From positions 280,770-344,769 of the IMG/VR virus record IMGVR_UViG_3300024252_000004: 64,000 bases of DNA; one strand, written 5' to 3'. This document shows, piece by piece, positions 1,695 to 44,846 of the stretch; positions within the stretch are counted from its first letter, which is position 1; each line of letters opens with the position of its first letter. The translations under genes were made by a program, and so were the position numbers. The notes beneath the pieces are model-generated. The model was not told the origin of the DNA. It worked only from the letters and a program-made list of their open reading frames with translations, and made no database searches. Source of the stretch: a virus.

Positions 1695-2129
1695 ATGAGC
1701 ATTCAGGACACAGTTAAGGCCCACATGAAAGAGGCCATGTATAGCCGAGATAAACCTCGCCTTACTGCCCTTCGCGGTATCAAGGCTGAGCTTACCAAGG
1801 AGACGAAGATCAAGGGTGTTGAGACTCTTTCTGAGGAAAAGAGTATAAAGATCCTGCGAAGGCTTGCAAAGCAGCGAACAGAATCCGCTACTGTTTATTC
1901 AGATGCGGGAAGAGATGAGCTTGCAGAGCAGGAGCGTTTCGAGCTTGGGATCATCGAAAGTTTTCTCCCCGCCCTGGCAGGTGAGGCAGAAACTCGTGTA
2001 TGGATTCAGGAGGCCATCGATAGTGGGGCGTCTAACATGGGCGCAGTAATGGGGATGGTTATGAAGTCTCATAGAAGTGAGGCTGACGGCAAGCTTGTTC
2101 GCAAGCTTGTGCAGGAAATGCTTAAGTAA
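1695..2129 (+). CDS. YqeY/GatB-domain protein
   Basis: SD GAGGTG then ATG 1695; sequence MSIQDTVKAHMKEAMYSRDKPRLTALRGIKAEL...ADGKLVRKLVQEML matches YqeY (GatB C-terminal-like) family along full length. Confidence 0.75.
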   Translation: MSIQDTVKAHMKEAMYSRDKPRLTALRGIKAELTKETKIKGVETLSEEKSIKILRRLAKQRTESATVYSDAGRDELAEQERFELGIIESFLPALAGEAETRVWIQEAIDSGASNMGAVMGMVMKSHRSEADGKLVRKLVQEMLK

Positions 2130-2160
2130 TAGCTTGCCTCCTTGGATAAGGAGGTGTGTC

Positions 2161-2352
2161 ATGCTTGATGCAAAAACGCAGGAGTTCCTGCGCAAATTGA
2201 AAGAGTTGTGTGCAGAATTTGAGGTAGAGATAGGCGGCTGCGGCTGCTGTGGTTCACCATACTTCACAGTGGGTGAGAAGAGTTACGAGGATCTTTTTAT
2301 TAGCAAAGACGAAAATCGTTGCTATGATAAAGACGGAGAACACAACTTTTAA
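2161..2352 (+). CDS. small Cys-rich hypothetical protein
   Basis: strong SD TAAGGAGGTG 2145-2154 then ATG 2161; GGCGCCGSPYF motif. Confidence 0.5.
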   Translation: MLDAKTQEFLRKLKELCAEFEVEIGGCGCCGSPYFTVGEKSYEDLFISKDENRCYDKDGEHNF

Positions 2353-2428
2353 CGTTACTGAGCAGTTAGAAGCGCCGCGTAGAGCTGGATCAACGGGGAA
2401 CTTTCGAAATGGTGAGAGGCCATTACAT

Positions 2429-2506
2429 CGGGGTATAGCGCAGTCTGGTCAGCGCACCTGCTTTGGGAGCAGGGGGCCGTAGGTTCGAATCCTACTATCC
2501 CGACCA
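2429..2506 (+). tRNA. tRNA, anticodon TGG (Pro-like), CCA encoded
   Basis: acceptor CGGGGTA/TATCCCG (one G-U), anticodon stem CCTGC/GCAGG loop TTTGGGA, T-loop TTCGAAT. Confidence 0.65.
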
Positions 2507-2521
2507 TAAAACTACTTGGAG

Positions 2522-2531
2522 TGCTTAAGCA
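2522..2531. repeat. palindrome TGCTTAAGCA upstream of tRNA
   Basis: second copy of motif seen at 845-856. Confidence 0.4.
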
Positions 2532-2555
2532 TCATGACCGTCGAGAGGGTCTTAT

Positions 2556-2646
2556 AGGACTGTAGCTCAGTTTTTGGTTAGAGCGCTCGCCTGATAAGTG
2601 AGAGGCCACTTGGTATACGTTGGTTCAAATCCAACCAGTCCTACCA
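2556..2646 (+). tRNA. tRNA-Ile(GAT)-like with 16-nt variable region (11-nt insertion)
   Basis: acceptor AGGACTG/CAGTCCT, D arm GCTC..GAGC, anticodon stem CTCGC/GTGAG loop CTGATAA; body matches bacterial tRNA-Ile(GAT) except ACTTGGTATAC inserted before T stem GTTGG/CCAAC. Confidence 0.55.
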
Positions 2647-2658
2647 TAAGGAAATGAA

Positions 2659-2871
2659 ATGCTTACTATTGATCAAGTTAGAAAGCTAAAGCGTGGCGAT
2701 AAGGTTGTGGATACCTACGGAAAGGTTTATGACTTTGGATATATTTCCCAAACGAATGCTGCCGTAGTTTACGATGAAGGCGAATACAATATGCAGGATG
2801 CTTCAGCTTTCAGACTACTTTCTGACAAAGAGGTTTCTGAAAAACCATTCTATAAGCTGAGGATCAAATGA
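2659..2871 (+). CDS. hypothetical protein
   Basis: 70-aa ORF. Confidence 0.4.
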   Translation: MLTIDQVRKLKRGDKVVDTYGKVYDFGYISQTNAAVVYDEGEYNMQDASAFRLLSDKEVSEKPFYKLRIK

Positions 2872-3107
2872 TAAACAAAATCGATTTTAGCAAAATCCCT
2901 AAAGAAGACCTATCTGTTTACGAACTATGGGTTGTGGCAACGTGGTCAGGGAATCCTTATACCGATGATCCTGGGAGTTGGTATATTGAAGATGGTCTGT
3001 ATCTAAAAAAGGAATCCGCCATTCTTGCTGCCTCAGTAAGGGGCGTCCGTAAGGATCAAGTTATGAGTCTGAGCGATTTCATATCGAAATGCAATAGGGG
3101 TTACTAA
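2868..3107 (+). CDS. hypothetical protein
   Basis: 79-aa ORF, overlapping stop/start with neighbours. Confidence 0.4.
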   Translation: MINKIDFSKIPKEDLSVYELWVVATWSGNPYTDDPGSWYIEDGLYLKKESAILAASVRGVRKDQVMSLSDFISKCNRGY

Positions 3108-3304
3108 TGGATTTGTGGCTACATCTGATGGAATGCAGTTACCCGGAGGGTTGCACTTGCGGCACCTCCGCATACAATGCTTTGGCAGAAAAAGTTGCTG
3201 AGCAGCAGTCTCTTATGAGAGAAGCTGCCAAAGCCTTGTCTGACTGGAACAACGGACAAGGGGTGGATGAAGATTTGGAGCTAATAAAGAAGCTTCGAAG
3301 TTAA
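3107..3304 (+). CDS. hypothetical protein
   Basis: 65-aa ORF. Confidence 0.35.
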   Translation: MDLWLHLMECSYPEGCTCGTSAYNALAEKVAEQQSLMREAAKALSDWNNGQGVDEDLELIKKLRS

Positions 3305-3305
3305 A

Positions 3306-3656
3306 ATGGGCTGCCCAAATTGTGGTGGAGAATCATATCTGACGACTTATCGAGCGAGATACCCTCGTGCAGGTAAGAGTCTTTTGGTTAAGTCAAAATG
3401 TATGATGTGTTCATCCTGTAGGACCCGGATAGGTCCTTTCAAATTCTTGACACCAGCGTTGGCAAATGAAAATGATGCTAACGCCGAGATAGAATGGGAA
3501 AGAAAATATAATGAGAAGATGCCTCCAGAATATCCGATGGGTCGTATAAGAAAGATTATGCGAACAGAGGAAGGTAAAAGGCGTGTAGCTGAAGCTTTTG
3601 GAAAAGCTTTGTACAAAGAAGTAGAGAAAACCTCTAAGGAGAGTAAAGATGATTAA
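3306..3656 (+). CDS. zinc-ribbon protein (CPNCG..CMMCSSC)
   Basis: 116-aa ORF with two Cys pairs. Confidence 0.45.
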   Translation: MGCPNCGGESYLTTYRARYPRAGKSLLVKSKCMMCSSCRTRIGPFKFLTPALANENDANAEIEWERKYNEKMPPEYPMGRIRKIMRTEEGKRRVAEAFGKALYKEVEKTSKESKDD

Positions 3657-4020
3657 TCAGAGCGATGTTGTTGAATACCTAAAGAACGTTAGCGTTATTG
3701 AACTTAGAGGTCTTATCGGGACTCTGGAGGATGAGCTTGGAGTTAAGATTCCAGAATACACAGCACCTTCTCAGTACGATCTCGGTTTTGGTGGCGGAGA
3801 GGTAGAGCAGACCGAGTTTACCGTTGTCCTTCAGGGCTTTGAGGGTAAGAAGGTTGCACTGATTAAGGTCGTGCGAGCACTTACAGGTCTCGGTCTAAAG
3901 GATGCAAAGGTCGCGGTAGAGTCCGCTCCTTATGTGATTAAGGAAGGCGTTGATAAGGGCGTAGCAGAAGAGGTTGCCGCTTCTATGAGAGAGGTTGGTG
4001 GCTTGGTAGACATTGTATAA
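3649..4020 (+). CDS. rplL: ribosomal protein bL12 (L7/L12) homolog
   Basis: SD AAGGAGAG then ATG 3649; N-terminal dimerisation/L10-binding region and C-terminal TGLGLKDAKVAVESAP..KEGV align with bacterial RplL. Confidence 0.8.
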   Translation: MINQSDVVEYLKNVSVIELRGLIGTLEDELGVKIPEYTAPSQYDLGFGGGEVEQTEFTVVLQGFEGKKVALIKVVRALTGLGLKDAKVAVESAPYVIKEGVDKGVAEEVAASMREVGGLVDIV

Positions 4021-4208
4021 TGTTGAATGAAGCCATCGCAGAAGCTCTTGACGCGCCTTATAAACAGGCGCGTCAAGAGGGAGCAGAGGAAGAGAGAAAA
4101 AAGATCGCTGACTGGTTGAGAGAAACCAGCAAGCACAGTAAGATAGCAAGTACCTTGCTGCGATTAATGGCTGATGAAATTGAGTCTGGCGATTATGGCA
4201 AGGGTTAA
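4020..4208 (+). CDS. hypothetical protein
   Basis: 62-aa ORF. Confidence 0.35.
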   Translation: MLNEAIAEALDAPYKQARQEGAEEERKKIADWLRETSKHSKIASTLLRLMADEIESGDYGKG

Positions 4209-4214
4209 CAATTT

Positions 4215-4288
4215 TGGAGATTAGTTTAATCGTAAAATAGGTGGCTCTGACCCGCCCGTTACTGGTTCAAATCCAGTATCTCCAGCCA
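4215..4288 (+). tRNA. tRNA, anticodon CTG (Gln), atypical D arm, CCA encoded
   Basis: acceptor TGGAGAT/ATCTCCA perfect, anticodon stem GGTGG/CCGCC loop CTCTGAC, T arm ACTGG-TTCAAAT-CCAGT; D loop lacks GG. Confidence 0.5.
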
Positions 4289-4305
4289 TCATCATAGGTG
4301 ATACA

Positions 4306-4545
4306 ATGAAGATCGATATGGAGATTCTTAAGAGTCGAGTCAAAGGGACAGTAAACTTTTCTTTTTTCAGAGCAGGACAGCTCTGGTATGTATGTGAGGA
4401 CGGGTGGGAATTTCCTATTCCTGTCGAAGATACGGGCAATGCACAGGGAAGCTCTCCCACTTTCTCTGCTCAGATGAAGGGCATTTATATGATGCGCTGG
4501 GTAAAGAAGGCTATGGAAGCAGAACTACAAAGGGATAGTGAGTGA
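4306..4545 (+). CDS. hypothetical protein
   Basis: 79-aa ORF. Confidence 0.4.
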   Translation: MKIDMEILKSRVKGTVNFSFFRAGQLWYVCEDGWEFPIPVEDTGNAQGSSPTFSAQMKGIYMMRWVKKAMEAELQRDSE

Positions 4546-4808
4546 GCATTTTTTCTAAAGTTATTGGCGAGAATATCTTTTTTAAACCAGAATTGTATCC
4601 GAGCGGAAATTGCTATGCTCATTATCCTTTGTCAACAAGGGATGTGAGTATTATATTGGAATATGATACGGGAAGATTTATCTATTACAAAATGAGACCA
4701 AGTGGATATGTTACAGGTGATCATATTTGTGCTGGGAAATTTTCGTCATACCTTTCCGAAAAGGAAAAGAAGTCATTTATTGAAATGTTGGAAAAGATCG
4801 AATCGTAG
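4542..4808 (+). CDS. hypothetical protein
   Basis: 88-aa ORF; 3' end overlaps tRNA start. Confidence 0.4.
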   Translation: MSIFSKVIGENIFFKPELYPSGNCYAHYPLSTRDVSIILEYDTGRFIYYKMRPSGYVTGDHICAGKFSSYLSEKEKKSFIEMLEKIES

Positions 4809-4876
4809 CTCAGTCCGGTAAGAGCACTCGGCTGATACCCGAGGGGTCGGTAGTTCAAATCTACCCGGTTCGACCA
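4799..4876 (+). tRNA. tRNA-Ile(GAT), CCA encoded
   Basis: acceptor CGAATCG/CGGTTCG, D arm GCTC-AGTCCGGTAA-GAGC, anticodon stem CTCGG/CCGAG loop CTGATAC, T-loop TTCAAAT. Confidence 0.7.
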
Positions 4877-4888
4877 TTAAAATGGGAG

Positions 4889-5311
4889 TTGGTTATGTCT
4901 AAACTGTTGAAAAAAAGACCCACTAAGCCAAGGGCACCAACTGAACCAAAAGAAATTTTGTCTTCGTATTCGTCAAAAACAATATACAGTTCATCTATTG
5001 AAGGTAGCGAGATTTTGGAACTCATGAAAGAGTGTAATTGTAGTATTACAGATTTATCTTTTCTCTTTTATGGAGACGACAACTATTCTTGTGACGAGAT
5101 AGAAATAAGTATTAACGCTCCGCTAATGAATAACAAGTATTCTGAGCAGATGGTTGTCTACGAGAGTAAGCTTGAAATCTATCACAAAAAGATGGAAATT
5201 TTCACGGCAAAGCTTTCTCTGTGGAATGAACAGAAGAAGCAAAGAGATGACGAGGCAAAGGCAAAGAAAATTGAAGCTCTTGAGTATAAGCTATCTCAGC
5301 TAAGGAAGTAG
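4889..5311 (+). CDS. hypothetical protein (coiled-coil C-terminus)
   Basis: 140-aa ORF. Confidence 0.45.
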   Translation: MVMSKLLKKRPTKPRAPTEPKEILSSYSSKTIYSSSIEGSEILELMKECNCSITDLSFLFYGDDNYSCDEIEISINAPLMNNKYSEQMVVYESKLEIYHKKMEIFTAKLSLWNEQKKQRDDEAKAKKIEALEYKLSQLRK

Positions 5312-5312
5312 T

Positions 5313-5795
5313 TTGACTCGCCTTAGTGACATACTCGAACGAATATCTGCGAACCCTTACAAGACTATGTCTACTCCGAAGCCCTATGGGAAGTCGGATG
5401 GAGAAAGGCTTGCGGGAGAGTTCTACCTTCAACTTAAGAAGCTTGATTGCATTCGCGGAATTGGATCGGGCATTCTTGAGATCATCGGAACAGATTATGT
5501 TTTGATGGTAAGAGGCACTAAGAGCACAGCAGAGTTGTTTTTTGCCAACAGGGTTTACATCAAACAGGCAAGGAAGCAGTCCCATGAGGAATCAGTAAGT
5601 CTTGATGCAGCCTTTCGTCTCTCTAAAGTGAATGATGAATTCGATGAATTCTTAGCAATTCCACATTTCTTAGATGCTATGGAGGAAATGCCTGAAGAGT
5701 TGCAGGGTTACATCGTAACTAACATTCCGGACTTTGCAGATTATGATGTTTCTGATAGGGTTAGAAAGAATTCTGAGTGGTTGAAAAACGTATAA
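5313..5795 (+). CDS. hypothetical protein
   Basis: 160-aa ORF from TTG; alternative ATG at 5370. Confidence 0.45.
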   Translation: MTRLSDILERISANPYKTMSTPKPYGKSDGERLAGEFYLQLKKLDCIRGIGSGILEIIGTDYVLMVRGTKSTAELFFANRVYIKQARKQSHEESVSLDAAFRLSKVNDEFDEFLAIPHFLDAMEEMPEELQGYIVTNIPDFADYDVSDRVRKNSEWLKNV

Positions 5796-5813
5796 TGCTC
5801 CCATGAGGTGAGC

Positions 5814-6689: not shown

Positions 6690-6732
6690 GGAATGTCAAG
6701 ATGAAGTGACAGAGCGCATAGGGTATTTTCAA

Positions 6733-7406: not shown

Positions 7407-7457
7407 AGTACTGTCACTCCTACTAAGATTAAGTATAATAGTAGGACTGGAGGTTCT

Positions 7458-8146
7458 AATGAATTCGATCATATTGGAAATTAAAGCTGCCGAAGGCGGC
7501 ACAGATGCAAAGCTCCTTGTTGATGAACAGTTGGCCATTTATAGGAGATACTGTTCTCGGAGGTCTCTTTGAGTTAGCTCTCTTAGATTCCAGAAGCGGT
7601 TTTATCAGATGCAGAGTCAGCGGCAAAAACGTCAAAAAACATTTTAGGCATGAGCCTGGAGGCCACAGATGGCAAAGGGTTCCTCCGACAGAGAGACGAG
7701 GAAGGGTTCATACTTCTACGATCACTGTCGCTGTCCTACCGGAAGTAACTGAATCTGAAGTTAAGATTAGCGAAAAAGATTTAGAATGGAAAGCCTTTAG
7801 GGGTTCTGGTCCCGGCGGTCAGCATAGAAACAAAACTGATTCTGCTGTGTCGCTTCACCATAAGCCTACTGGAATCAAGATCCGTTCTGAATCTCAAAAG
7901 AGTCAGAAGCAGAATAAGGACACCGCTCTTGCAATATTGAGAGCGAGGTTGCATTCTGAGCAGAGAGAGTCTCAGTCTTTGCGACGCAGTAATATGAGGA
8001 AGAGCCAAGTGGGCTCAGGTATGCGCGCCGACAAAATCAGGACGATCAGGTTGCAGGACGGACAAGTTACGGATCACAACACTGGAAAAAGAATCTCTGC
8101 GAAAAAATATTTGCGCGGAGACTTGGAAGGTCTATTTGAAAAGTAA
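7458..8146 (+). CDS. class I peptide chain release factor, RF1-like (PxT = PPT), lacking domain 1; needs +1 frameshift at 7570 and has an additional +1 frame break at 7499/7501
   Basis: SD GGAGG + ATG 7458; MNSIILEIKAAEGG (frame 0) / TDAKLLVDEQLAIYRRYCSRRSL (frame +1, stops at UGA 7570) / ELALLDSRSGF..GGHRWQRVPPTERRGRVHTS..SGPGGQHRNKTDSA..DKIRTIRLQDGQVTDH (frame +2) align contiguously to RF1. Confidence 0.75.
7559..7573 (+). other. prfB-type programmed +1 ribosomal frameshift site
   Basis: GGAGG-UCU-CUU-UGA-G: SD-like element 3 nt upstream of CUU UGA, same architecture and spacing as E. coli prfB AGGGGG-UAU-CUU-UGA-C. Confidence 0.7.
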
Positions 8147-8524: not shown

Positions 8525-8617
8525 TGCGGGGTCGACTAGTCTGGCCCATGTCACCAGTCTCATAAGCTGGCTCTGAGTATACCTCAATCGTTGGTTCAAA
8601 TCCAACCCCCGCACCCA
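8525..8617 (+). tRNA. tRNA-like, anticodon CAT on class-II scaffold (19-nt variable arm), CCA encoded
   Basis: acceptor TGCGGGG/CCCCGCA perfect, D stem GAC/GTC, anticodon stem CCAGT/GCTGG loop CTCATAA, variable arm hairpin TGAG-TATAC-CTCA, T arm identical to tRNA 2556. Confidence 0.5.
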
Positions 8618-12902: not shown

Positions 12903-12990
12903 GGGTCGTTATCCCGTAGGGGCAGCGGTGGAGACTGTAAATCTCCTGTCATTATTGACTCGGTTGGTTCGACTCCAGCACGGCCCACCA
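12903..12990 (+). tRNA. tRNA-Tyr(GTA), class II, CCA encoded
   Basis: acceptor GGGTCGT/ACGGCCC, anticodon stem GGAGA/TCTCC loop CTGTAAA, long variable arm, T-loop TTCGACT. Confidence 0.7.
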
Positions 12991-13130
12991 TATTTGTGAA
13001 GCGATACATCGATAAACACTGACCACGGCTACGGGCGGGATGATGAAGGGGCAGTAGCCTGTCCCAAATCGCTCACAAATATACTTTCGGGACAGTCTCT
13101 TGTAGGAAAGATTACGCGCGTGACATCGGT

Positions 13131-13664
13131 TCAATTCCGATCTGTTCCACCACTGAATCGTCCATCACCTGATAGGAAGTGATCAACTTCGTGACAGGTC
13201 GGACAAACAATCTCTAAGTTCTCAATCGAGTTATTCTCTCTATTGCGATCTTTATGATGAACTTGTAGAACTTCAGGATGCTTATCGTATCCGCAATGAG
13301 AGCATATCTGTTCAAGATGCTCTTTTGCAGTTTTGCGATAATCCTTTCGGTTATCAGTATAGTGCGGCGGATGAATTTCTTTTATCCCTCCTATCCTTTG
13401 TGCAATATCTTTGCAATTTCTTGAGCAAAAAACAAATCCGCTTTTAGATGCAGCAATCTTAGAGGCAGACCTGTAAAAGTCTTTATCACAAATAGCACAA
13501 ACACAATTTGGCTTTTGTATCTTCGGATTTTTCTTTCTCCATTCAAAAGAGCATTTGCGATTGCAAAATTTTGCGTTTCCTCTGTTTAATTCTTTAATTT
13601 CTGCATCAAATTGCGTATAACAATTTAAGCAACTTTTCTTAATGGTTCTACCTTTGTAAGACAT
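13131..13664 (-). CDS. HNH homing endonuclease
   Basis: HHKDRNRENNSIENLEIVCPTCH HNH motif plus multiple CxxC pairs; sits between tRNA-Tyr and tRNA-Cys. Confidence 0.75.
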   Translation of the reverse strand: MSYKGRTIKKSCLNCYTQFDAEIKELNRGNAKFCNRKCSFEWRKKNPKIQKPNCVCAICDKDFYRSASKIAASKSGFVFCSRNCKDIAQRIGGIKEIHPPHYTDNRKDYRKTAKEHLEQICSHCGYDKHPEVLQVHHKDRNRENNSIENLEIVCPTCHEVDHFLSGDGRFSGGTDRN

Positions 13665-13685: not shown

Positions 13686-13761
13686 GGGGCCTTAGCTCAA
13701 TTGGGAGAGCGCGACATTTGCAATGTCGAGGTCGCGAGTTCGATCCTCGCAGGCTCCACCA
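13686..13761 (+). tRNA. tRNA-Cys(GCA), CCA encoded
   Basis: acceptor GGGGCCT/AGGCTCC, anticodon stem CGACA/TGTCG loop TTTGCAA, T arm GCGAG-TTCGATC-CTCGC. Confidence 0.7.
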
Positions 13762-13821: not shown

Positions 13822-13843
13822 CTCCCTTAGCTCAGTTGGTTAA
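13822..13843 (+). pseudogene. tRNA 5' remnant (acceptor + D arm start CTCCCTTAGCTCAGTTGGTTAA) truncated by HNH gene
   Basis: canonical tRNA 5' end with no matching D-stem 3' strand, anticodon or T arm; overlaps the stop of minus-strand HNH 13840-14325. Confidence 0.45.
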
Positions 13844-14325
13844 TTCCATTTTGGTTTTAACTTATAGTGTTCTTCTCTGTGGCAGTTTGCACACAGCATG
13901 ACGCATTTGTCAAGTTCAGCTTTAATGGTATCCCAGGCATAAGTATTCCCAGAGCCAATGCCGAAATCTTTCTCGTTTGGTTCTAAATGGTGAAAATCAA
14001 ATGCATCAATACATTTGTCATATCCACAATACTCGCACTTTTCTCCTTTATATTCTACGGCTTTAATCTTACACTGCCATCTTCTTTTTTGCACATAGTA
14101 CTTGTTCTTACACTTTTTTGAGCAAAATTTTCCTGAAGATGGCAAGTCACACAAATGCCATGTGCATTCCAAAGCTTTTGACTTTTCTTTATTTTTTGGA
14201 GAAGTTGATAGTCCAAATTTCTTAAGCCAATGACGAACATTTGTTTGCGAGCAAGATAGCTCTTTTGCGATTTCTCTGGTAGAATAATTATTATCAACTA
14301 ATAACTTTAAAGTTTCTAATTCCAT
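13840..14325 (-). CDS. HNH endonuclease with N-terminal HTH
   Basis: FDFHHLEPNEKD...LCANCHREEH HNH motif; N-terminal STREIAKELSCSQTNVRHWLKKFG helix-turn-helix. Confidence 0.75.
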   Translation of the reverse strand: MELETLKLLVDNNYSTREIAKELSCSQTNVRHWLKKFGLSTSPKNKEKSKALECTWHLCDLPSSGKFCSKKCKNKYYVQKRRWQCKIKAVEYKGEKCEYCGYDKCIDAFDFHHLEPNEKDFGIGSGNTYAWDTIKAELDKCVMLCANCHREEHYKLKPKWN

Positions 14326-14365: not shown

Positions 14366-14452
14366 GCTACTGTGGCCGAGCGGTTGAAGGCAGCAGGCTG
14401 TTAACCTGCCTGGGAAACCACATCATAGGTTCAAATCCTATCGGTAGCGCCA
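14366..14452 (+). tRNA. tRNA with tRNA-Ser body (D arm TGGCCGAGCGGTTGAAGGC, long variable arm, G73) but anticodon GTT
   Basis: acceptor GCTACTG/CGGTAGC, anticodon stem GCAGG/CCTGC loop CTGTTAA (one change from Ser GCT loop CTGCTAA), CCA encoded. Confidence 0.5.
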
Positions 14453-15288: not shown

Positions 15289-15704
15289 AAAGAGTTTATG
15301 TTGATATGGACGGAGTCCTTTGTGATTACGTTGCAAAATTTACAGAACTCCGTAACGAAGGAAACAAGTTTCCTCAGCAAAGCTTTGACTTCTTCAGAAG
15401 TATGAAGCCTATGCCATCGGCTCTTGCAGCTATGGGAATACTATCTAAACATTTCGATGTTTGGATTTTGACTAAGCCTTCCTACAAAAACCCTATGTCT
15501 TATACAGAAAAGAGACTTTGGGTTGAGGACCATCTTGGTCTGGATTGGTGTAAGAAGCTGATCCTTTGTCCTGATAAGGGATTGGTTATAGGAGATTATC
15601 TTATTGATGATTTCTTGTGGCCTGAATTTCAAGGTGAACAAGTTCATTTTGGTTCAAATAGATTTCCAAATTGGAGATCGGTAATAGATTATATGCGCCC
15701 GTGA
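15246..15704 (+). CDS. HAD-superfamily 5'(3')-deoxyribonucleotidase-like phosphatase
   Basis: VYVDMDGVLCD motif I (DxDxV); start may be TTG 15284 rather than ATG 15246. Confidence 0.55.
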   Translation: MGMATRSCSGRNKLKRVYVDMDGVLCDYVAKFTELRNEGNKFPQQSFDFFRSMKPMPSALAAMGILSKHFDVWILTKPSYKNPMSYTEKRLWVEDHLGLDWCKKLILCPDKGLVIGDYLIDDFLWPEFQGEQVHFGSNRFPNWRSVIDYMRP

Positions 15705-15785
15705 GCCGAGTGGTTGATGGCCCCAGACTCTTAATCTGGTACAGGTAGTGCTGCAACGTAGGTTCGAATCCTACCGGGCGTACCA
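15695..15785 (+). tRNA. class-II scaffold tRNA with anticodon CTT (Lys codon AAG), A73, CCA encoded
   Basis: acceptor GCGCCCG/CGGGCGT, D arm GCC-GAGTGGTTGAT-GGC, anticodon stem CCAGA/TCTGG loop CTCTTAA, 18-nt variable arm, T-loop TTCGAAT. Confidence 0.5.
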
Positions 15786-21690: not shown

Positions 21691-21768
21691 GGGGAATTAG
21701 CTCAATTGGCCAGAGCGGCAGATTCTAGACCTGCGACAGTGTGGGTTCGAGCCCCACATTCCCTACCA
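21691..21768 (+). tRNA. candidate amber-suppressor tRNA, anticodon CTA, tRNA-Trp-like body
   Basis: acceptor GGGGAAT/ATTCCCT, D arm GCTC-AATTGGCCA-GAGC, anticodon loop TTCTAGA on stem GCAGA/CCTGC (A-C mismatch at 31-39), 6-nt variable, T arm GTGGG-TTCGAGC-CCCAC, CCA encoded. Confidence 0.5.
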
Positions 21769-22027: not shown

Positions 22028-22126
22028 GGGATAGTTGCTGACAGGTAGGCAGCTACTTATTTGGAAGCGTTCTTAAGGGGCCTGCCTCCTATAGATCGGG
22101 GGGTTCGATTCCCCTACGGAGTACCA
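22028..22126 (+). other. tRNA-like 3' fragment (T arm + acceptor 3' strand + CCA) without a matching 5' acceptor strand
   Basis: GGGGG-TTCGATT-CCCCT then ACGGAGT-A-CCA at 22097-22126; no complementary 5' strand within 100 nt upstream. Confidence 0.3.
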
Positions 22127-23238: not shown

Positions 23239-23756
23239 TGAAATACAAAGTAAAGAAAGGTGCGATGAACTCGGGCGGCATTAGTAAACTCATAGAGTTT
23301 GCAGAAACTCTGAACTATACGCCGTGTTCAACTTGGCTCGGATATTACAAAGAAAAGGTATTCTACCTTGGCGATATGAGCAAAGAAGATGTTCCGAAAA
23401 TTCTGCACAGTCTTGCTCCTGCGATCCTCGGAAAGCTATCGGCTCTTGGAGAGCTAAGCGAAGACAATCTTTTTAATCAAATCGTGATTAAGAAGTATGC
23501 CGAAGGAGACGAAGGCAAGCCGCATTTTGATCCAAGAGATATTAAGGGGAAGGTCGTTGCAATTCACTTTGGTGACTTTGAGCTTAGTACGGTAAGGTTT
23601 GATGGCGAAGAAGTAATGGTTGACTCTGGGGATGTCATCATCCGACAGGCAACATCGGGTTACACGATGGGGCCAAAGTACAACGTAAGTGCAGTTGAGG
23701 GCGGCACAAAATATGTCCTCGAATTCCAAACAATCACTAAGGAGAAACCCTCTTGA
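23238..23756 (+). CDS. hypothetical protein
   Basis: 172-aa ORF from GTG overlapping previous stop. Confidence 0.45.
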   Translation: MKYKVKKGAMNSGGISKLIEFAETLNYTPCSTWLGYYKEKVFYLGDMSKEDVPKILHSLAPAILGKLSALGELSEDNLFNQIVIKKYAEGDEGKPHFDPRDIKGKVVAIHFGDFELSTVRFDGEEVMVDSGDVIIRQATSGYTMGPKYNVSAVEGGTKYVLEFQTITKEKPS

Positions 23757-24238
23757 AAACAAGAGTAAATTCTGATATCATAGCAAGAAGAGTTCTTCTC
23801 ATTGGAGGAGACGGTTCCAAGGTTGGCATTTTTCAGACAAGAGATGCCATAAGTAAAGCACAGGAGGCAGGTCTTGACCTGTTGCAGGTCAGCGCAGATC
23901 AGGAAGTTCCCGTGTGTAAGATTGTCGATTATGGCAAGATGCTTTATCTTCTAAAGAAGGGCAAGAAGGCTAAGGGATCAAGGGTTGTTGTGAAGGAAGT
24001 GAAGTTCGGACCTAACACTGGTGATGCTGATATTCAGGTCAGAGTTAAGGCTGCGAACAAATTCCTCTCCAAGGGTAACCACGTCAAGTTTACCGTCAGG
24101 GTGAAGGGTCGTGCAAACGCTCACAGAGACCTTGTCATCGATAAGCTTGCAGAAGTTCTTGAGAAGGTAGAGGGGAAAGTAGAGAAGGCTCCATCCTTCT
24201 CAGGCAACATATGCTCGGCGCTTGTCGTGCCGGAGTAA
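23753..24238 (+). CDS. infC: translation initiation factor IF-3 homolog, UUG start
   Basis: SD AAGGAGA then TTG 23753, no in-frame ATG before conserved NTD; LIGGDGSKVGIF..EAGLDLLQVSADQEVPVCKIVDYGK and KEVKFGPNTGDADIQVRVKAANKFL..RVKGRANAH match IF3 N and C domains. Confidence 0.8.
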   Translation: MKTRVNSDIIARRVLLIGGDGSKVGIFQTRDAISKAQEAGLDLLQVSADQEVPVCKIVDYGKMLYLLKKGKKAKGSRVVVKEVKFGPNTGDADIQVRVKAANKFLSKGNHVKFTVRVKGRANAHRDLVIDKLAEVLEKVEGKVEKAPSFSGNICSALVVPE

Positions 24239-24249
24239 ACTCATAATGT

Positions 24250-24327
24250 ACGTGCCCATGTTCCAAGGCAAGGCGACAGAGATTCCAAATCTCCGTGGGT
24301 GGGGTTCGATACCCCAGGTGCGTGCCA
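24250..24327 (+). tRNA. tRNA-Trp(CCA), CCA encoded
   Basis: acceptor ACGTGCC/GGTGCGT (G-U pairs), anticodon loop TTCCAAA, T arm TGGGG-TTCGATA-CCCCA; D arm atypical. Confidence 0.55.
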
Positions 24328-28928: not shown

Positions 28929-29225
28929 GGGGGTATCAGGTCTGTTTCAGACCGATTCCGGGCGGCCCACACGATCAGTGGGACGGGTGAGAGGATTGCT
29001 CACTGCCCCCGCCAGTTTTGGGAATATATAGGCCAAGGTACAACGGCCGCTTTCAAAGCAGTATTCATGATATCTGCGCAGGAGAATTACCTGCTATTCC
29101 CGCCAGTTAGATTAGTTTTGGGGAGTGGGTGGACTGGTTCGAGTCCAGATAGAAAGGTTATACCCTACCCGCATGGCAAAGGATCGCGCGTCCGACTTTA
29201 GGTTCGAATCCTAAACTCTCCACCA
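28929..29225 (+). ncRNA. ~300-nt ORF-free structured RNA with tRNA-like 3' end and alanine-identity-like G3-U70/A73 (tmRNA-like? class unknown)
   Basis: 5' GGGGG..; 3' TTAGG-TTCGAAT-CCTAA + ACTCTCC-A-CCA; internal second T-arm-like GGACTGG-TTCGAGT-CCAG; no canonical tag reading frame. Confidence 0.3.
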
Positions 29226-29241
29226 TTTAAAAAGGAATTTA

Positions 29242-29508
29242 ATGTTTGTTGTTCACTTCAAATCAGAATCTGGTGACAATTACTACTCAGCTTTCGAAAG
29301 AAAGCCTGACGATTACGAATTGAAAGTTTGGATCATTTATCATTGGCCTGAATCAATTGAAGATGGCGTCTGCTATATTCATGTTAATAGCGTTACAGAG
29401 TGTGAGTTTTATGACGTAGACGAAGGTGATTTGGATCTCAGAGAGTTGCCGTATCCCGACAAAGTGGAGTGGATGTTGCCGTATCCCGACAAAGTGGAGT
29501 GGATGTAA
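29242..29508 (+). CDS. hypothetical protein with duplicated LPYPDKVEWM C-terminus
   Basis: 88-aa ORF; C-terminal 20 aa encoded by tandem repeat 29445-29504. Confidence 0.4.
   Translation: MFVVHFKSESGDNYYSAFERKPDDYELKVWIIYHWPESIEDGVCYIHVNSVTECEFYDVDEGDLDLRELPYPDKVEWMLPYPDKVEWM
29445..29504 (+). repeat. perfect tandem duplication, 2 x 30 bp (GTTGCCGTATCCCGACAAAGTGGAGTGGAT)
   Basis: identical adjacent 30-mers, in frame. Confidence 0.9.
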
Positions 29509-32800: not shown

Positions 32801-33451
32801 ATGAAAGTAGTATGCATATCAGATACGCACAACAAACATGAACAAATTGAGATACCAGAGTGCGATCTGCTTTTGCATACCGGAGACTTTTCGTCCAGAG
32901 GCTATAAGCACGAGTTTCAAAACTTTGTCAAGTGGCTGGACAAACAGCCTGCAAAGCACAAAGTATTTATATCTGGCAATCACGATTACATTTGCCAAAA
33001 AGAACGAGAGTTTGTTGCGGAATTCGTAGCAGACTACGATGTTCATTACTTGCTTGATAGCTCCGTTGAAATAGAAGGTCTCAAAATCTATGGCAGCCCT
33101 TGGCAGCCTTGGTTTCACAATTGGGCCTTCAACTTCAATAAGAATGATCATGCTCAGGCTATATCAACTTGGGCTAAAATCCCTGATGATACTGATGTAT
33201 TACTTACACATGGGCCACCATACAAGGTCCTTGATAGAGTGGCGAGAGTCATGCATGCTGGAGAAGATCCGAATGTTGGGTGCAAGTTCCTTTTAGGAAG
33301 AGTCATGGAAGTTAAGCCAAAGCTTCATGTTTTCGGACATATCCACGAGGCTTATGGGCAGCTTGAGCACAACGGAACACTTTTCATTAATGCTGCGAGT
33401 TGCACCTTACAATATCAGCCAACTAACTTAGCGACAGTAACGGAGCTATGA
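32801..33451 (+). CDS. calcineurin-like metallophosphoesterase
   Basis: ISDTH..GD..GNHD..THGPP..GHIHE motifs. Confidence 0.7.
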   Translation: MKVVCISDTHNKHEQIEIPECDLLLHTGDFSSRGYKHEFQNFVKWLDKQPAKHKVFISGNHDYICQKEREFVAEFVADYDVHYLLDSSVEIEGLKIYGSPWQPWFHNWAFNFNKNDHAQAISTWAKIPDDTDVLLTHGPPYKVLDRVARVMHAGEDPNVGCKFLLGRVMEVKPKLHVFGHIHEAYGQLEHNGTLFINAASCTLQYQPTNLATVTEL

Positions 33452-34759: not shown

Positions 34760-34845
34760 GGCCCCTTGGTGGAATTGGTTTACACAGCAGGTTCAAATTC
34801 TGTGCGCTTATGCGTTTCTCGGTTCGAGTCCGAGAGGGGCTACCA
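34760..34845 (+). tRNA. tRNA-Leu(CAA), class II, CCA encoded
   Basis: Leu-like D arm TGGTGGAATTGGTTTACAC, anticodon stem GCAGG/TCTGT (two G-U) loop TTCAAAT, 16-nt variable arm, T arm CTCGG-TTCGAGT-CCGAG. Confidence 0.55.
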
Positions 34846-39090: not shown

Positions 39091-39183
39091 TTTCTTATCC
39101 TTATTTTGGATTAGTAAAACAAGTTGAGTATCATTAATTAACGATACTAATATAAAATTGATAAAACTGAAAAAGGAGTTTAA

Positions 39184-39840: not shown

Positions 39841-39858
39841 CCTCCCAAAGAGGATACC

Positions 39859-40554
39859 ATGGATTCCGCGAAATATCCCAGGTCGCTGCATTGGCCGAGT
39901 TCCCCAGGAACTACCTCAGATGACCGTTTCATTACACAGGCACAAGCGCTCGCATTTCTAAATGTCGAGACTGTGCTTACCGAAAAGCTTGACGGTGGAA
40001 ATACTACCATAACGAGAGATGCCTTTTTTGCAAGGTCTCATGGTGGAGAACCAGCTCACCCGTCATTCAATCTTCTACGCACCCTTCATAAGAATTATCT
40101 ATGTAGGGCCATTGATAAAAATATATCAGTATTTGCTGAGTGGTGCTTCGCAGTACACTCAATTAGGTACTCGATGCTTCAAGATTATCTCAACATTATC
40201 GCCGTCAGGAATGATGAAACCGGCGAATGGTGGGATTGGGACGAAGTATGTTTGATGGCTGATCACCTCGGCTTCCCCACTGTACCAGTTCTACTCCGTG
40301 GAACGTTTACAGACATAGGCGCCTTGGAAAAAACTATGACCACGTTCTCTGGCTTGTCGTCTTTGTACGGCCCAACAAGAGAAGGTGTAGTTCTAAGAAA
40401 AGTCAAGGGTGTTGCTGAGATCAAAGACGAGCGTGGTCTTTGCTTAGATGGTCTTGCTAAGTGGGTAAGAGAAGATCATGTTCAAACGGACGAACATTGG
40501 AGCAAGAAGAAAGTTGAAATTCAGCCAACCATATCGGCACTGAGTTTTATGTAA
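39859..40554 (+). CDS. ATP-dependent RNA ligase (RNA_ligase/DRB0094-like family)
   Basis: KYPRSLHWPSSPG..DD N-terminal signature and nucleotidyltransferase motif I TEKLDGGN (KxDG). Confidence 0.6.
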   Translation: MDSAKYPRSLHWPSSPGTTSDDRFITQAQALAFLNVETVLTEKLDGGNTTITRDAFFARSHGGEPAHPSFNLLRTLHKNYLCRAIDKNISVFAEWCFAVHSIRYSMLQDYLNIIAVRNDETGEWWDWDEVCLMADHLGFPTVPVLLRGTFTDIGALEKTMTTFSGLSSLYGPTREGVVLRKVKGVAEIKDERGLCLDGLAKWVREDHVQTDEHWSKKKVEIQPTISALSFM

Positions 40555-40640
40555 TCAGCCTTTTGCTTCGTTCTAAAAATTGCGTATATATCCTAGACAA
40601 GAAAGCTAAATCCTGTAAACCTCCATCAAGGAAGAAATTA

Positions 40641-41561: not shown

Positions 41562-41989
41562 ATAGAATATACAAATACGCCGAACTTCCTCCAGAAAAAG
41601 GAGTAGTTAAGTTCGGCTGGGGAGCTACAGAGGAAATGCCAGAGACAGATTACGTCTTAGGCTATCATTCCCGTTCTAAGTTCGCCACAGAGGAAGAGGT
41701 CAGTCTTTCTCGCAAAGAAGGGACTAATGCAGCCTCCGTGGCTGATTACACAAAGTTTCTGCAAAGCCTTACAGGAAGTACTCCAGAAGCATTCTATGAG
41801 AAATGGGATGGAAAAGAGGATGAGCTTAAGGCTTTTTGGTCAGCAAATTTCAGCAATGCCGATCCCAAACAATATCTATTTGTTTGGAAGCTATCAAGAC
41901 TGTTAGTCACTGGCAAGAAATTCGTAATGTATAGTAGGGGATTTAGGCTGGTGAAAAATGAGACAGGAGACACGCCGACAGAGGTATAA
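41552..41989 (+). CDS. hypothetical protein
   Basis: 145-aa ORF (GTG start). Confidence 0.4.
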   Translation: MEVDRIYKYAELPPEKGVVKFGWGATEEMPETDYVLGYHSRSKFATEEEVSLSRKEGTNAASVADYTKFLQSLTGSTPEAFYEKWDGKEDELKAFWSANFSNADPKQYLFVWKLSRLLVTGKKFVMYSRGFRLVKNETGDTPTEV

Positions 41990-42476
41990 TGGGAAAAAGA
42001 ATGATGCAATTTCTTTACCGCTTAGCATTGTCACGGTCAACTTTGATTTTGATGACAATCTTGCTTTCACAATCAGAACCGCTGCTTGCTATGGTGTGGG
42101 CACTATTTATGTAATAGGCTCCGTACCGGACAGAAGTTTTTTGAACTCTCGCTCCGGCAGTCTGTATGACTACGTTGACATCTACTCTTTCTCTCAGCCG
42201 AGAGACTTTACAGAGTTTGCAAAGAAGAACGGGTATAATATAGTGTCGGCCGAGCTTTCGGATGATTCTGTAAGCCTGTTCGATTACAAATTCGACATGG
42301 ACACGCATACGTGTCTGGTGTTAGGCCATGAAACAACTGGCGTACCCATCGAATGTACCTTGAATGGAGATAATGTTTTCATACCAATGCTCGGAGTAGG
42401 GTTTTGTTTGAATACGTCCCAGACAGGAACAGCAATCATGACAGAGTATGTTCGTCAGTATTTGGAGAGAAAATGA
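41958..42476 (+). CDS. SpoU/TrmH-family RNA 2'-O-methyltransferase (SPOUT)
   Basis: CLVLGHETTGVP..FIPMLG..LNTSQTGTAIM matches SpoU motifs 2 and 3. Confidence 0.6.
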   Translation: MRQETRRQRYNGKKNDAISLPLSIVTVNFDFDDNLAFTIRTAACYGVGTIYVIGSVPDRSFLNSRSGSLYDYVDIYSFSQPRDFTEFAKKNGYNIVSAELSDDSVSLFDYKFDMDTHTCLVLGHETTGVPIECTLNGDNVFIPMLGVGFCLNTSQTGTAIMTEYVRQYLERK

Positions 42477-42666
42477 GGAAGCTTGTTAAGAAGGCGGTGA
42501 AGGTTGTTGTTACACCAGTTGCAACAGCCGCTGTTATGTCACAGTGGGCAATTGTAATTCTTGCCCTTTATGCACAGACAATTCGTCGCAACTATGGATC
42601 TAATAAGGAAGACTAATCTAATAATGAAGTGAGTTATAGTGAACGCTCACTTCACAGGGATTAGTC

Positions 42667-43854
42667 ATGGGAACAGTAGATAGATATACAGATGATTTAA
42701 AAGTAAAGCTCTCGTCAGGAAAGACGTTAACGCTTGATGCGGATACGGTTGCCTTCACAGGTGATGTGTCAATATCAGGTGCGTTAGGCAACACGACAAT
42801 CACTGGTAGTTTGTCAGTATCAAGTACGGCAACATTCAGTGGCTCCATAGTGGCCAATGGCGATATCACAAGAGCCGCTACTTTATCGATCACAGCAACC
42901 GGTGTTTCTTCGGATCTAACGTTAACATCAGGAAGGGACATTAACTTAGTCGGAAACGACGATATTAATGTGACTCCAACAAATGATTACGATTTGACTG
43001 CTGGAGACGAGGTTAATATAACCTCTGGCACCACCTGTGCGGTGATTGCATATTCATCGCTGTCATTGACTGGAGCCTTTGGCCTAACTCAATGTGCGGT
43101 AAATATAAGTTCTTCTGGGCTCTTCCTTTCTGGAACACAAGACTCCACTTATGTGGTGGACCTTTTGAACAGGTCAACGACTGTTGGCTCTGATGTCTTA
43201 ATGGTTAGAACCTTGACAGAGTCTCCATCTTCCTCGACAAGATACGCGACATTTGCTTCCGGTGCTGCTCAGACCACAAGAGGTTTGATCAGGGGAGCAG
43301 CTACCGCAACATCGAGTGCCTTCTATTCGGAAGGAACATCTGGAGACTCCGCAGCGTATGGTATTTCACCAGACAATGTAGAAGTCAATAGTACGGGAGA
43401 CTGCGTATTCGTTTCCGGTTCTGCTGATTATGGTGAGTTCATTGAGTGTGGCGATTTAAGTGAGTGGCCCGTAGAGGTTCCAGAGGGTGACAAATACCTC
43501 GGACTACCAGAGGGCTACATAGTGTATGTAAGGGATAAGGCATTCTACAAAGAAGGCCCAGGGACACCGATGGTGGTATCTCATAGATCAATCATTGTTG
43601 GTAACGAAAGAGTTGACGAAGAATCAGTTGGACAGGTAATGTCCTTCATTGGTCAGGTTCCTGTATTGGTTACAGGAGTTGTCAACTCTGGAGACTTGCT
43701 CATCCCTACAGGAGATTTCTATGCAGAAGCATTCTCTCCTGATAACATTACCTTAGCTCAGTATATGAGAGCAATAGGTACAGCGTGGGAGTCTTCTGAT
43801 AAAGAAGACATGAAGAGGGTCATGTGTTCTGTGGGTGTAAAAAACACTTATTGA
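42667..43854 (+). CDS. tail fiber/tailspike-like structural protein
   Basis: 395 aa, Ser/Thr/Gly-rich beta-repeat region (SISGALGNTTITGSLSVSSTATFSGS..). Confidence 0.5.
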   Translation: MGTVDRYTDDLKVKLSSGKTLTLDADTVAFTGDVSISGALGNTTITGSLSVSSTATFSGSIVANGDITRAATLSITATGVSSDLTLTSGRDINLVGNDDINVTPTNDYDLTAGDEVNITSGTTCAVIAYSSLSLTGAFGLTQCAVNISSSGLFLSGTQDSTYVVDLLNRSTTVGSDVLMVRTLTESPSSSTRYATFASGAAQTTRGLIRGAATATSSAFYSEGTSGDSAAYGISPDNVEVNSTGDCVFVSGSADYGEFIECGDLSEWPVEVPEGDKYLGLPEGYIVYVRDKAFYKEGPGTPMVVSHRSIIVGNERVDEESVGQVMSFIGQVPVLVTGVVNSGDLLIPTGDFYAEAFSPDNITLAQYMRAIGTAWESSDKEDMKRVMCSVGVKNTY

Positions 43855-43868
43855 TAACAAACATATAA

Positions 43869-44135
43869 TTGAAACTTGTTGAGGTAAATATGACCACAGA
43901 AGATAATGTATATACGTGGATTTGTCTGCGTTACGATTCCGTTGGCTTGGTGACTGCTGAGCTTAGATGGGACAATGAAACAGTTGAAACTCTTGGAGGC
44001 TCACACTCAAAGTGGACTCCGGTGAAATTTCATGCACAGAGCAAATGGGGCAATAGCCTGCCGATTCATTGGCATGGTTACGAGATCCCTGAGGCTGTCA
44101 AAATCGATGGAGTCATCGAAGTATCGGAAGACTGA
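43869..44135 (+). CDS. hypothetical protein
   Basis: 88-aa ORF. Confidence 0.4.
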   Translation: MKLVEVNMTTEDNVYTWICLRYDSVGLVTAELRWDNETVETLGGSHSKWTPVKFHAQSKWGNSLPIHWHGYEIPEAVKIDGVIEVSED

Positions 44136-44434
44136 TGACTGACGTAGTAATGTATGATTTACTTGATCAGCCACTGCGTATCGGTGACGAAGTCATTTAT
44201 GCAAATAGTGGCCGCTTATGGAAAGGCAAGCTCCTTTATGTAAGCGGCCTCACTTGCGGATCTTGTCAGATAACAGTTCCAGAACTTGGTGGCAGGGTTG
44301 TAACGTTGCAACTTAGGAAGAGTAGAACTCCTTCTTATATCAGGACCTCTCAGCGTAAGCAGATTGAAACTGGTGAGTTTAAGATTAAGAGTTCAAGGTT
44401 AATTAAGATAGAGAAAGGTTCTGTGAAAGAGTAA
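44135..44434 (+). CDS. hypothetical protein
   Basis: 99-aa ORF. Confidence 0.4.
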   Translation: MTDVVMYDLLDQPLRIGDEVIYANSGRLWKGKLLYVSGLTCGSCQITVPELGGRVVTLQLRKSRTPSYIRTSQRKQIETGEFKIKSSRLIKIEKGSVKE

Positions 44435-44443
44435 TAAAAACTC

Positions 44444-44846
44444 GGGGGCGTTTTGGATTCGACCGGGTAACAGATAGGAATAGTGCAAGCCGATCAAGGT
44501 AACTCAGATCGTTATAAGCGTTACAAAAAACAAACTAGTTGACGACTATTCATTCGTGTACGCAAACGCAGGCAGAGGCTTCGGCGCTCCTGTAGTAGCA
44601 TACGCCTAATTCCGATTTAGGCATGTGGACTCTGTGTTCCATATATCCAAACACAGATAAGTGGTTGAACGCACTGACATAAACATTGTTCAAAAATGGA
44701 GTAGCCCGAAAGGGAGGAGGCGTCTATCATTTGGCGTCAGGGGATAAAATGAATACTTTGCCTATTTAGAGAAATGGGATAAGCTTGTGAACGACTTGAA
44801 ATTGACGTTATGCGACACGAGGGTTCGACTCCCTCCGCCTCCACCA
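44444..44846 (+). ncRNA. ssrA: tmRNA (SsrA), standard one-piece
   Basis: 5' GGGGGCGTTTTGGATTCGACCGGG and 3' GAGGGTTCGACTCCCTCCGCCTCCACCA match tmRNA termini; acceptor GGGGGCG/CGCCTCC with G3-U70 and A73; tag frame GCA AAC GCA GGC AGA GGC TTC GGC GCT CCT GTA GTA GCA TAC GCC TAA (ANAGRGFGAPVVAYA). Confidence 0.85.

Follow-up and report, generated by a model that had tools for sequence, protein, structure and literature searches.

How does a virus express a release-factor gene that is divided between two reading frames, and to what does the stop codon between them respond? The question is raised by a gene at positions 7459-8146 of a 64-kb stretch of viral DNA (IMG/VR record IMGVR_UViG_3300024252_000004, positions 280,770 to 344,769; hereafter the window), at least 350 kb of the genome lying outside it. 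An earlier sequence-only reading of the window had listed this gene as an RF1-like factor within an unusually complete phage translation module. The PCRF and RF-1 domains of such a factor are present, but the protein is not a full RF1, as it is without domain 1 and is encoded in two reading frames; the frameshift, which is the one unusual feature, had been overlooked. What is new here is a prfB-like +1 frameshift in a viral family of RF1 without domain 1, while the gene set itself is already known. We hold with high confidence that the genes are correctly identified and that the +1 frameshift is real and required. We also consider it probable, for the reading as a whole, that the window is an accessory region, rich in tRNA genes, of a huge marine phage with a genome of at least 414 kb, carrying a frameshifted release factor that is coupled to host RF2.

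A release-factor gene in two reading frames

The annotated open reading frame (ORF) of the release factor, 7505-8146, encodes 213 amino acids and matches the RF1 model only from model position 157. Three-frame translation located the missing start of domain 2 upstream, in another frame. This upstream part, ORF1, starts with ATG at 7459 behind a GGAGG ribosome-binding site and runs for 37 sense codons (MNSIILEIKAAEGGTDAKLLVDEQLAIYRRYCSRRSL) to an in-frame TGA. ORF2, in the +1 frame, encodes the rest of domain 2 with PPT, the GGQ domain 3 and domain 4 (Table 1). The two parts meet at a cassette consisting of a Shine-Dalgarno (SD)-like GGAGG (7559-7563), the spacer TCT, the slippery codon CTT (7567-7569) and the stop codon TGA (7570-7572), followed by G.

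The joined product has 228 amino acids and no domain 1. It aligns without a break to residues 88-317 of T. maritima RF1 (PDB 2fvo, E=2e-51) and also to residues 111-326 of E. coli RF1, the matches to other PDB families being far weaker (RF2, 5e-29; PrfH, 8e-12). Addition of ORF1 raised the score against the prfA hidden Markov model (HMM) from 208-210 to 240-242 bits, a gain of about 32 bits, and the 228-residue product scored 240 bits against prfA and 159 bits against prfB. It covers model positions 105-335 of 347 and remains below the canonical RF1 cut-offs of 423 and 400 (TIGR00019, NF001859). The decoding residues are of the RF1 type, Q-R-V-P-P-T (RVPPTE) and H-T-S, and the GGQ motif (GPGGQ) is kept.

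An identity as PrfH was rejected, the score being 83.8 bits against the TIGR03072 cut-off of 166.65, with no fitting context. The neighbouring ORFs that were scanned, which encode a PMM-like HAD hydrolase and ORFans, include no RtcB partner. PrfH, or RF-H, is a release-factor homologue without domain 1 (Baranov et al. 2006, PMC1586002); the window factor is like it in the absence of domain 1 and the presence of GGQ, and unlike it in keeping an RF1-type tripeptide. According to a passage of the same paper that cites Mora 2003, codon-specific peptide release can do without domain 1, which is needed for interaction with RF3. Like truncated E. coli RF1, the phage factor should release peptides without RF3 at UAA and UAG, a codon specificity predicted from the conserved decoding residues only. 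The question is thereby raised of what benefit phages have from an RF3-independent RF1. A sigma-70-like site (CTGTCA-17 nt-TATAAT, 7411-7439) lies 20 nt upstream of the start codon, given which the gene may have its own promoter, and an ORF on the minus strand (7122 to about 7412) runs towards the gene.

Relatives of the short factor were collected from IMG/VR with a profile scan, which gave 336 of them on contigs of up to 618 kb; the best 80 were examined together with the window, and 71 loci could be classified. The first eight relatives (52-59% identity, contigs of 35-392 kb) all need a +1 shift at the same codon. Among the 71 loci the shift at this codon is needed in 52 (a less strict search gave 56 sites), 11 stay in frame and have no stop, and 8 stay in frame but have one TGA or TAG. 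All sites have CTT as the slippery codon except one with TTT, and the stop codon is TGA in 40, TAG in 11 and TAA in 2 (about 75%, 21% and 4%). The logo of 49 unique sites reads C-GGAGG-N3-CTT-T(GA/AG/AA)-C; the C after the stop is present in 39 of the 49, and the window itself has G there. A strict SD-like sequence was found in 28 of 49 shifted members versus 2 of 23 members of the in-frame group as first classified. The shifted members cluster in a single large group, in which pairwise identity goes down to 42%, the in-frame lineages are basal with a few nested, and TAG and TAA variants are scattered across the release-factor tree.

Conservation of the two frames was compared over 53 unique sites. 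Upstream of the site the mean pairwise amino-acid identity is 0.59 in frame 0 versus 0.30 in frame +1, and downstream it is 0.38 in frame +1 versus 0.19 in frame 0; stop codons were found solely in the unused frames. This switch of identity from frame 0 to frame +1 exactly at the site indicates that both halves are translated and that the coding frame changes there, and it rules out that the gene is a pseudogene or an assembly error and that the protein is made from ORF2 alone, starting from Met at 7505. The broader possibility that the gene is a decaying pseudogene or an assembly error, in a region that is bacterial or from a megaplasmid, could appeal to the lack of virion genes in the window, to gene callers that give the 213-residue ORF2 only, and to large plasmids, some of which bear similar translation gene suites (Al-Shayeb 2020, PMC7162821). 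We regard it as highly improbable, since five independent assemblies (ENA, JGI, Logan) agree in every letter of the 161-nt site region, the 53 unique sites share the shift position, direction and slippery codon with each frame under purifying selection on its own side, and relatives are present both in IMG/VR and in published huge phage genomes. Its pseudogene and assembly-error part has largely been refuted.

One of these published genomes, a 485-kb huge phage deposited without annotation (LR745208.1), has GGAGGGGT-CTT-TGA-C at the same place, and its frameshifted short factor (L174) has a shortened decoding loop, HRVQRTSNGRIHSS, with no recognisable P-x-T or SPF tripeptide. The short factor is also present in LR745206.1 and others of the genomes deposited by Al-Shayeb et al. 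A scan of bacterial genomes returned canonical full-length RF1 at 39-47% identity, with a single exception at 55% that has a short-type look, on a contig (L090) of a metagenome-assembled genome; as nearly all bacterial matches are full-length RF1, the short factor is essentially a viral family. The tripeptides found in the family are PPT, PPN, SPT, SPL, PPS and PET, the middle residue being almost always Pro. An anti-correlation between tripeptide and stop codon, suggested by the first eight loci, failed in larger samples, leaving a weak tendency of Ser-first tripeptides to go with TAG.

Comparison with prfB and proposed control of the frameshift

The bacterial prfB +1 frameshift site is AGGGGG-UAU-CUU-UGA-C. 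The window site resembles it in the internal SD-like sequence, the 3-nt spacer, the CUU codon, a stop codon starting with U and the location in a class-I release-factor gene, and the C that usually follows the prfB stop is also usual in the viral family. However, prfB is the RF2 gene, whereas the window gene is of the RF1 type and occurs in viruses. The prfB site lies at codon 26, in domain 1; the window site lies at codon 37-38, in domain 2, near residue 144 of E. coli RF1, and in the alignment it falls on the Trp of the RF1 'RKGW' segment. Owing to the different codon and domain, the window site is not homologous to the prfB site. The prfB stop is TGA in 98.6% of cases and was never TAG among 8164 genomes (Prince 2025, PMC12421855), whereas all three stops occur in the viral family and the usual one is not cognate to the product.

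The survey of more than 12,000 genomes by Prince 2025 (PMC12421855) gave no programmed frameshift in prfA, for which according to that paper none has been shown, no RF1 counterpart of the prfB frameshift was known to the review of Atkins 2016, and every CUU-stop entry in RECODE is prfB (PRFect, PMC10885494). The release-factor gene of Mimivirus and Megavirus (PMC3521657) is likewise a viral termination factor expressed through recoding; unlike the window gene, it encodes a eukaryotic-type eRF1 and needs both readthrough and frameshift. Stop-codon-recoded phages (Borges et al., bioRxiv 10.1101/2021.08.26.457843) carry, like the window, genes for RF1 or RF2 alongside suppressor tRNAs, but the release factors of those gut phages are without a reported frameshift. 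Truncation or frameshifting of release factors is not mentioned by Al-Shayeb 2020 (PMC7162821), and the deposited records are unannotated. No published frameshifted or domain-1-less phage release factor was found in the open-access literature, and an earlier mention elsewhere is possible.

The mechanism proposed here is modelled on bacterial prfB. A ribosome would meet CUU-UGA after 37 codons, 3 nt downstream of the internal SD-like GGAGG; the peptidyl-tRNA-Leu would slip from CUU to UUU, and translation would continue in the +1 frame. Slippage would be favoured by pairing of the anti-SD with the SD-like sequence, by the CUU-U context and by slow decoding of the stop. The RF1-like decoding residues imply that UGA is not the product's own codon, and the UGA at the shift site would be read by host RF2 rather than by the phage factor. 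The yield of phage factor would rise as host RF2 activity falls, RF1 taking that role for the TAG variants. It is most likely host RF2 that sets the output of the phage factor. That this coupling is the selected function is a nearly balanced matter, on which we lean slightly towards no. A fuller proposal is made tentatively, and we are more inclined to doubt it than to accept it: that huge phages independently evolved a prfB-like switch in an RF1 without domain 1, with a stop usually read by the host's other release factor and with the output wired to host RF2 (to RF1 in the TAG variants), the first such programmed frameshift outside prfB. If true, the virus would have in it a sensor for the termination capacity of its host.

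A genuinely autoregulatory loop of the prfB type would require that the short factor, with broadened or altered specificity, reads the stop of its own shift site, UGA included. The architecture of the cassette is the same as in prfB, about a quarter of the sites have TAG or TAA, which an RF1-type factor reads, the tripeptide varies in the family with a middle Pro as in the SPF of RF2, and Ser-first tripeptides go mostly with TAG sites. On the other hand, about three quarters of the sites have TGA although in the window protein the Gln, P-x-T and H-T-S are still those of the RF1 type, and this protein scores far higher against RF1 than against RF2. Moreover, prfB was never found with the non-cognate TAG in the 8164 genomes of PMC12421855, and an autoregulated RF1-type gene should likewise avoid TGA. 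We consider the loop improbable; a specificity change that restores autoregulation is the least supported explanation.

Another explanation is a fixed attenuator or timing device, which would cap a potentially toxic factor at the intrinsic efficiency of the shift, leaving the identity of the stop and the release-factor levels of the host unselected. The stop flips between TGA, TAG and TAA in close relatives with the variants scattered across the tree, at least 11 of the 71 classifiable members have no stop at the site and 8 more have an in-frame stop, and over-expression of RF1 or RF2 lowers the fitness of B. subtilis (PMC12421855). The easy interchange of stops between close relatives fits a plain expression limiter too. 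However, expression could be attenuated more simply through a weak promoter or ribosome-binding site, and the full prfB-like signal (SD-like sequence, 3-nt spacer, CUU and C after the stop) is kept at 42% identity. Maintenance of the signal at this distance points to selection on the competition between termination and slippage, which depends on release-factor activity, and the attenuator appears somewhat unlikely to us.

Several points weigh against the coupling to host RF2 and the viral setting in which we place it. The case for the frameshift is built on sequence comparison, and the host anti-SD and RF2 are assumed to behave as in E. coli. Because UGA is non-cognate, classical prfB autoregulation cannot be the general logic. 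The closest relative, with 77% amino-acid identity and the same neighbouring genes, has CTT-TAG, a flip which suggests that the identity of the stop may matter little, and another relative (L178, 68% identity) has CTT-TGA without an SD-like sequence. The amber suppressor tRNA-CTA encoded in the window would oppose extra RF1 activity at UAG. Finally, capsid, portal and terminase genes were not found in the window (PHROGs; tblastn on large ORFs), so that the case for its viral origin is made from relatives and from how the region is organised.

Until now the CUU-stop +1 cassette was taken as a signature of prfB alone. A viral RF1-type gene has acquired this cassette at a place not homologous to the prfB site, and all three stops are used in it, which offers a natural experiment on what the cassette senses and hundreds of new sequences for the study of +1 frameshift signals. 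As gene callers cut these genes to ORF2, annotation pipelines should handle them like prfB.

The in-frame members with an in-frame TGA or TAG are among loci L009, L010, L044, L049, L073/L076, L074, L087 and L175. In L009, L010 and L044 the stop is exactly at the frameshift position (TAT-TAG, CTA-TGA and CTC-TGA), beside the conserved Trp of canonical RF1. Such members may come from recoded phages, or they may carry a version of the switch that works by readthrough.

Translation genes in a tRNA-rich region

The features located in the window are collected in Table 1. The sequence-only reading was to fall if HMM searches did not bear out bL12, IF3 or the release factor; searches with Pfam and NCBIfam support every one of the assignments to bL12, IF3, release factor, YqeY, SpoU methyltransferase and RNA ligase.

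Table 1. Positions of the features in the window
Feature	Position	Strand	Evidence or remark
Promoter motif, reference copy	652-688	+	Repeat families; motif search; promoter-scan match 662-690
Promoter motif, further copies (starts)	8425, 12803, 22698, 26278, 36121, 38513
31 tRNA genes, ORFans between	874-34845	+ (all)	ARAGORN
YqeY/GatB-C-like protein	1695-2129	+	PF09424, E=1e-34, 120 bits
Long-variable-arm tRNA-Ile-GAT	2556-2646
Ribosomal protein bL12 homologue, 123 amino acids	3649-4020	+	TIGR00855, 100 bits (cut-off 84.4)
Release-factor ORF1	7459-7572	+	Three-frame translation
Cassette GGAGG-TCT-CTT-TGA-G	7559-7573	+
Release-factor ORF2, +1 frame	7571-8146	+	PF03462, PF00472
Long-variable-arm tRNA, anticodon CAT	8525-8617
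HNH endonuclease gene	13131-13664	-	Beside tRNA-Ala
tRNA-Ala	13686-13761
HNH endonuclease gene	13840-14325	-	On the other side of tRNA-Ala
Long-variable-arm tRNA-Asn-GTT	14366-14452
Long-variable-arm tRNA-Lys-CTT	15695-15785
tRNA, anticodon CTA (amber suppressor type)	21691-21768	+	ARAGORN; Rfam tRNA, 54.4 bits
Initiation factor IF3, IF3_N and IF3_C	23753-24238	+	TIGR00168, 146.8 bits (cut-off 60)
Calcineurin-like phosphoesterase	32801-33451
RNA ligase, nucleotidyltransferase domain only	39859-40554	+	PF09414, E=1.7e-23, 84.1 bits (cut-off 27)
SpoU-family 2'-O-methyltransferase	41958-42476	+	PF00588, E=2.4e-16, 60.5 bits (cut-off 29.7)
One-piece tmRNA	44444-44846	+	Rfam RF00023, 81.2 bits (gathering 47), model positions 1-374; ARAGORN
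GroEL	53810-55411
Short PurA-like enzyme (adenylosuccinate-synthase-like), 337 amino acids	59085-60098
DHH phosphoesterase	60047-60931		phrog_4771, 248 bits; follows the PurA-like gene
IMPDH/GMP-reductase-like gene	62491-63534

During infection the region would supply extra translation parts, namely tRNAs, tmRNA, bL12, IF3, tRNA repair and modification enzymes and the release factor. Huge phages were reported to encode IF1, IF3, S1, S4, S21, L7/L12, RF1, RF2, RRF, tmRNA, SmpB and tRNAs (Al-Shayeb 2020, PMC7162821). Like the window, they have many tRNAs, tmRNA, IF3, L7/L12, RF1 or RF2 and genes whose products modify and ligate tRNAs, in genomes of more than 200 kb, and at the level of the gene set there is no essential difference. 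The huge-phage pattern recognised by the sequence-only reading agrees with this list and with identical copies of the window bL12 and release-factor ORF2, which occur in dozens of assemblies on contigs of up to 414,644 bp. The gene set is one further example of a known pattern, huge phages with translation parts; the reading is right but ordinary, and the words 'unusually complete' and 'module' go too far. Aminoacyl-tRNA synthetase, elongation factor, S1, S21, RRF and SmpB were not found among about 75 further window ORFs scanned beyond the named translation genes. The six protein genes related to translation are scattered across 40 kb amid ORFans and metabolic genes with 2-16 kb between them, a spacing that indicates a tRNA-rich accessory region and not an operon, and conserved synteny of the release factor with tRNAs is absent, there being no tRNAs within 3 kb of it in eight relatives.

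It had further been stated that the genes are partly regulated by one promoter family. A sigma-70-like motif of 28-36 nt, TTGCTA-17 nt-TATGAT with an extended TG, does occur in seven copies (repeat-family search), with 0 copies expected by chance (motif search), and five of the seven are upstream of tRNA genes. None of the seven stands directly before bL12, IF3, the release factor or YqeY, so the claim holds in a narrow sense. A general scan for sigma-70 promoters and terminators gave counts not above those of shuffled sequence.

The bL12 homologue is colinear with E. coli bL12 over its full length (residues 2-122, 38% identity). Its C-terminal domain matches PF00542 (E=1e-21, 77 bits), and its N-terminal domain reaches 23.6 bits against PF16320, slightly below the cut-off of 25. 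The motifs KVA(V/L)IK..R and GLGLK are kept and the factor-binding helices conserved, and the hinge is not Ala-rich. Identity to cellular bL12 does not exceed about 50% among the matches of a word-limited search, and no informative signal of a host or donor came from the bL12 homologues or the cluster names. A viral bL12 of a Salmonella phage was incorporated into ribosomes (Mizuno 2019, PMC6375957), and the window protein resembles it in the conserved factor-binding helices. In that study all the cultivated phages with bL12 had genomes of less than 80 kb, and the bL12 was frequently one domain of a larger protein; the window bL12, unlike these cases, is a free-standing two-domain protein in a huge phage. 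That a phage bL12 could reprogram factor recruitment was suggested by the sequence-only reading.

Both Pfam domains of IF3 are above their cut-offs. Its start codon is UUG, 8 nt after AAGGAG; the start being ordinary, there is no sign of infC-style autoregulation through AUU. The link of YqeY to translation is by association only.

tRNAs, tmRNA and other genes of the window

Of the 31 tRNA genes called by ARAGORN, 28 reach the gathering score of Rfam RF00005; tRNA-Tyr at 12903 is weakly supported in a permissive Rfam search, and tRNA-Trp at 24250 and tRNA-Leu-CAA at 34760 were called by ARAGORN only. The array has 24 anticodons for 16 amino acids (Pro, Ile, Gln, Met, Arg, Thr, Tyr, Ala, Asn, Lys, Glu, Phe, Trp, Val, Leu and Asp), and the CCA end is gene-encoded in most of the tRNAs. 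The number of about 30 and the five Leu isoacceptors given by the sequence-only reading are borne out, but a tRNA-Cys, which it listed, was not found in the window by ARAGORN or Rfam, and it had left out Ala, two Asn and the tRNA with anticodon CTA, all of which are present. The array begins at 874 rather than at 1695, where the module had been said to start. In spite of the suppressor-type tRNA-CTA and the release factor, no recoding of TAG was seen in the window; its 106 ORFs end with TAA in 46, TGA in 44 and TAG in 16 cases, and the standard code reads normally.

Four tRNAs of 87-93 nt have an extra variable stem-loop as in class II tRNAs. For three of them a normal-length gene with the same anticodon lies nearby; Lys-CTT is instead accompanied by tRNA-Lys-TTT. 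The long Asn-GTT tRNA has the discriminator G, and its D-arm is identical to that of E. coli tRNA-Ser. Three tRNA-like 3' ends with T-arm, acceptor strand and CCA, at about 13089-13153, 22050-22126 and 29119-29226, were not called by ARAGORN or Rfam, and ARAGORN with relaxed, intron-allowing settings gave spurious calls only. The first takes the fold of a 65-nt mini-cloverleaf that lacks a 7-nt anticodon loop, and the third, of about 108 nt, has two T-arm-like hairpins; the fold energies of the three are no better than those of shuffled sequences. The two HNH genes on both sides of tRNA-Ala look like homing-endonuclease insertions in the tRNA array.

The tmRNA, described as canonical by the sequence-only reading, indeed gives a full-length Rfam match above the gathering score. 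Its acceptor stem is GGGGGCG/CGCCUCC-ACCA with G3:U70. The tag predicted by ARAGORN, DDYSFVYANAGRGFGAPVVAYA, has 22 codons and ends in AYA, not in the usual LAA-type ending, and was not recognised by ARAGORN as a known tag.

The RNA ligase has the KxDG adenylylation motif as EKLDG in an Rnl2-like nucleotidyltransferase domain (PF09414); no NCBIfam equivalog, C-terminal domain or kinase/phosphatase partner was identified for it. The SpoU-family enzyme is nearest to TrmH (tRNA Gm18; NF008295, 53.7 bits, under the cut-off of 227). Together with the tRNAs, these two enzymes might serve mainly as counter-defence against host nucleases that cleave tRNA, rather than for codon usage or takeover of translation. 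Their presence in the same region would suit such a role, as would the duplicate isoacceptors for Lys, Asn, Ile, Met, Pro, Phe, Asp and Glu, the four tRNAs with atypical bodies and long variable arms, and the calcineurin-like phosphoesterase, which could heal RNA ends. However, a polynucleotide kinase and evidence for an anticodon-nuclease target were not found in the window, and bL12, IF3, the release factor and tmRNA are unfit for a role in repair. Counter-defence as the main role seems rather unlikely to us, and it and translation supply are not mutually exclusive.

No near-identical phage was found in INPHARED, where two 80-nt tRNA matches were the only hits, and only three PHROG matches, weak to moderate, were obtained in the window. 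Most of the roughly 75 scanned ORFs are ORFans. The identifiable ones, some of them listed in Table 1, are auxiliary or metabolic and include the PMM-like HAD hydrolase, an NT5C nucleotidase, IscU, a VWA protein, an SPFH/Band-7 protein, two metallophosphoesterases, an aspartate carbamoyltransferase, a sulfotransferase, a SohB-type S49 peptidase and a 2OG-Fe(II) oxygenase. The PurA-like protein is under both model cut-offs (PurA, 266 bits; PurZ, 92 bits). A perfect tandem duplication of 30 nt, with two copies of GTTGCCGTATCCCGACAAAGTGGAGTGGAT, lies at 29445-29504, at the overlap of two ORFs.

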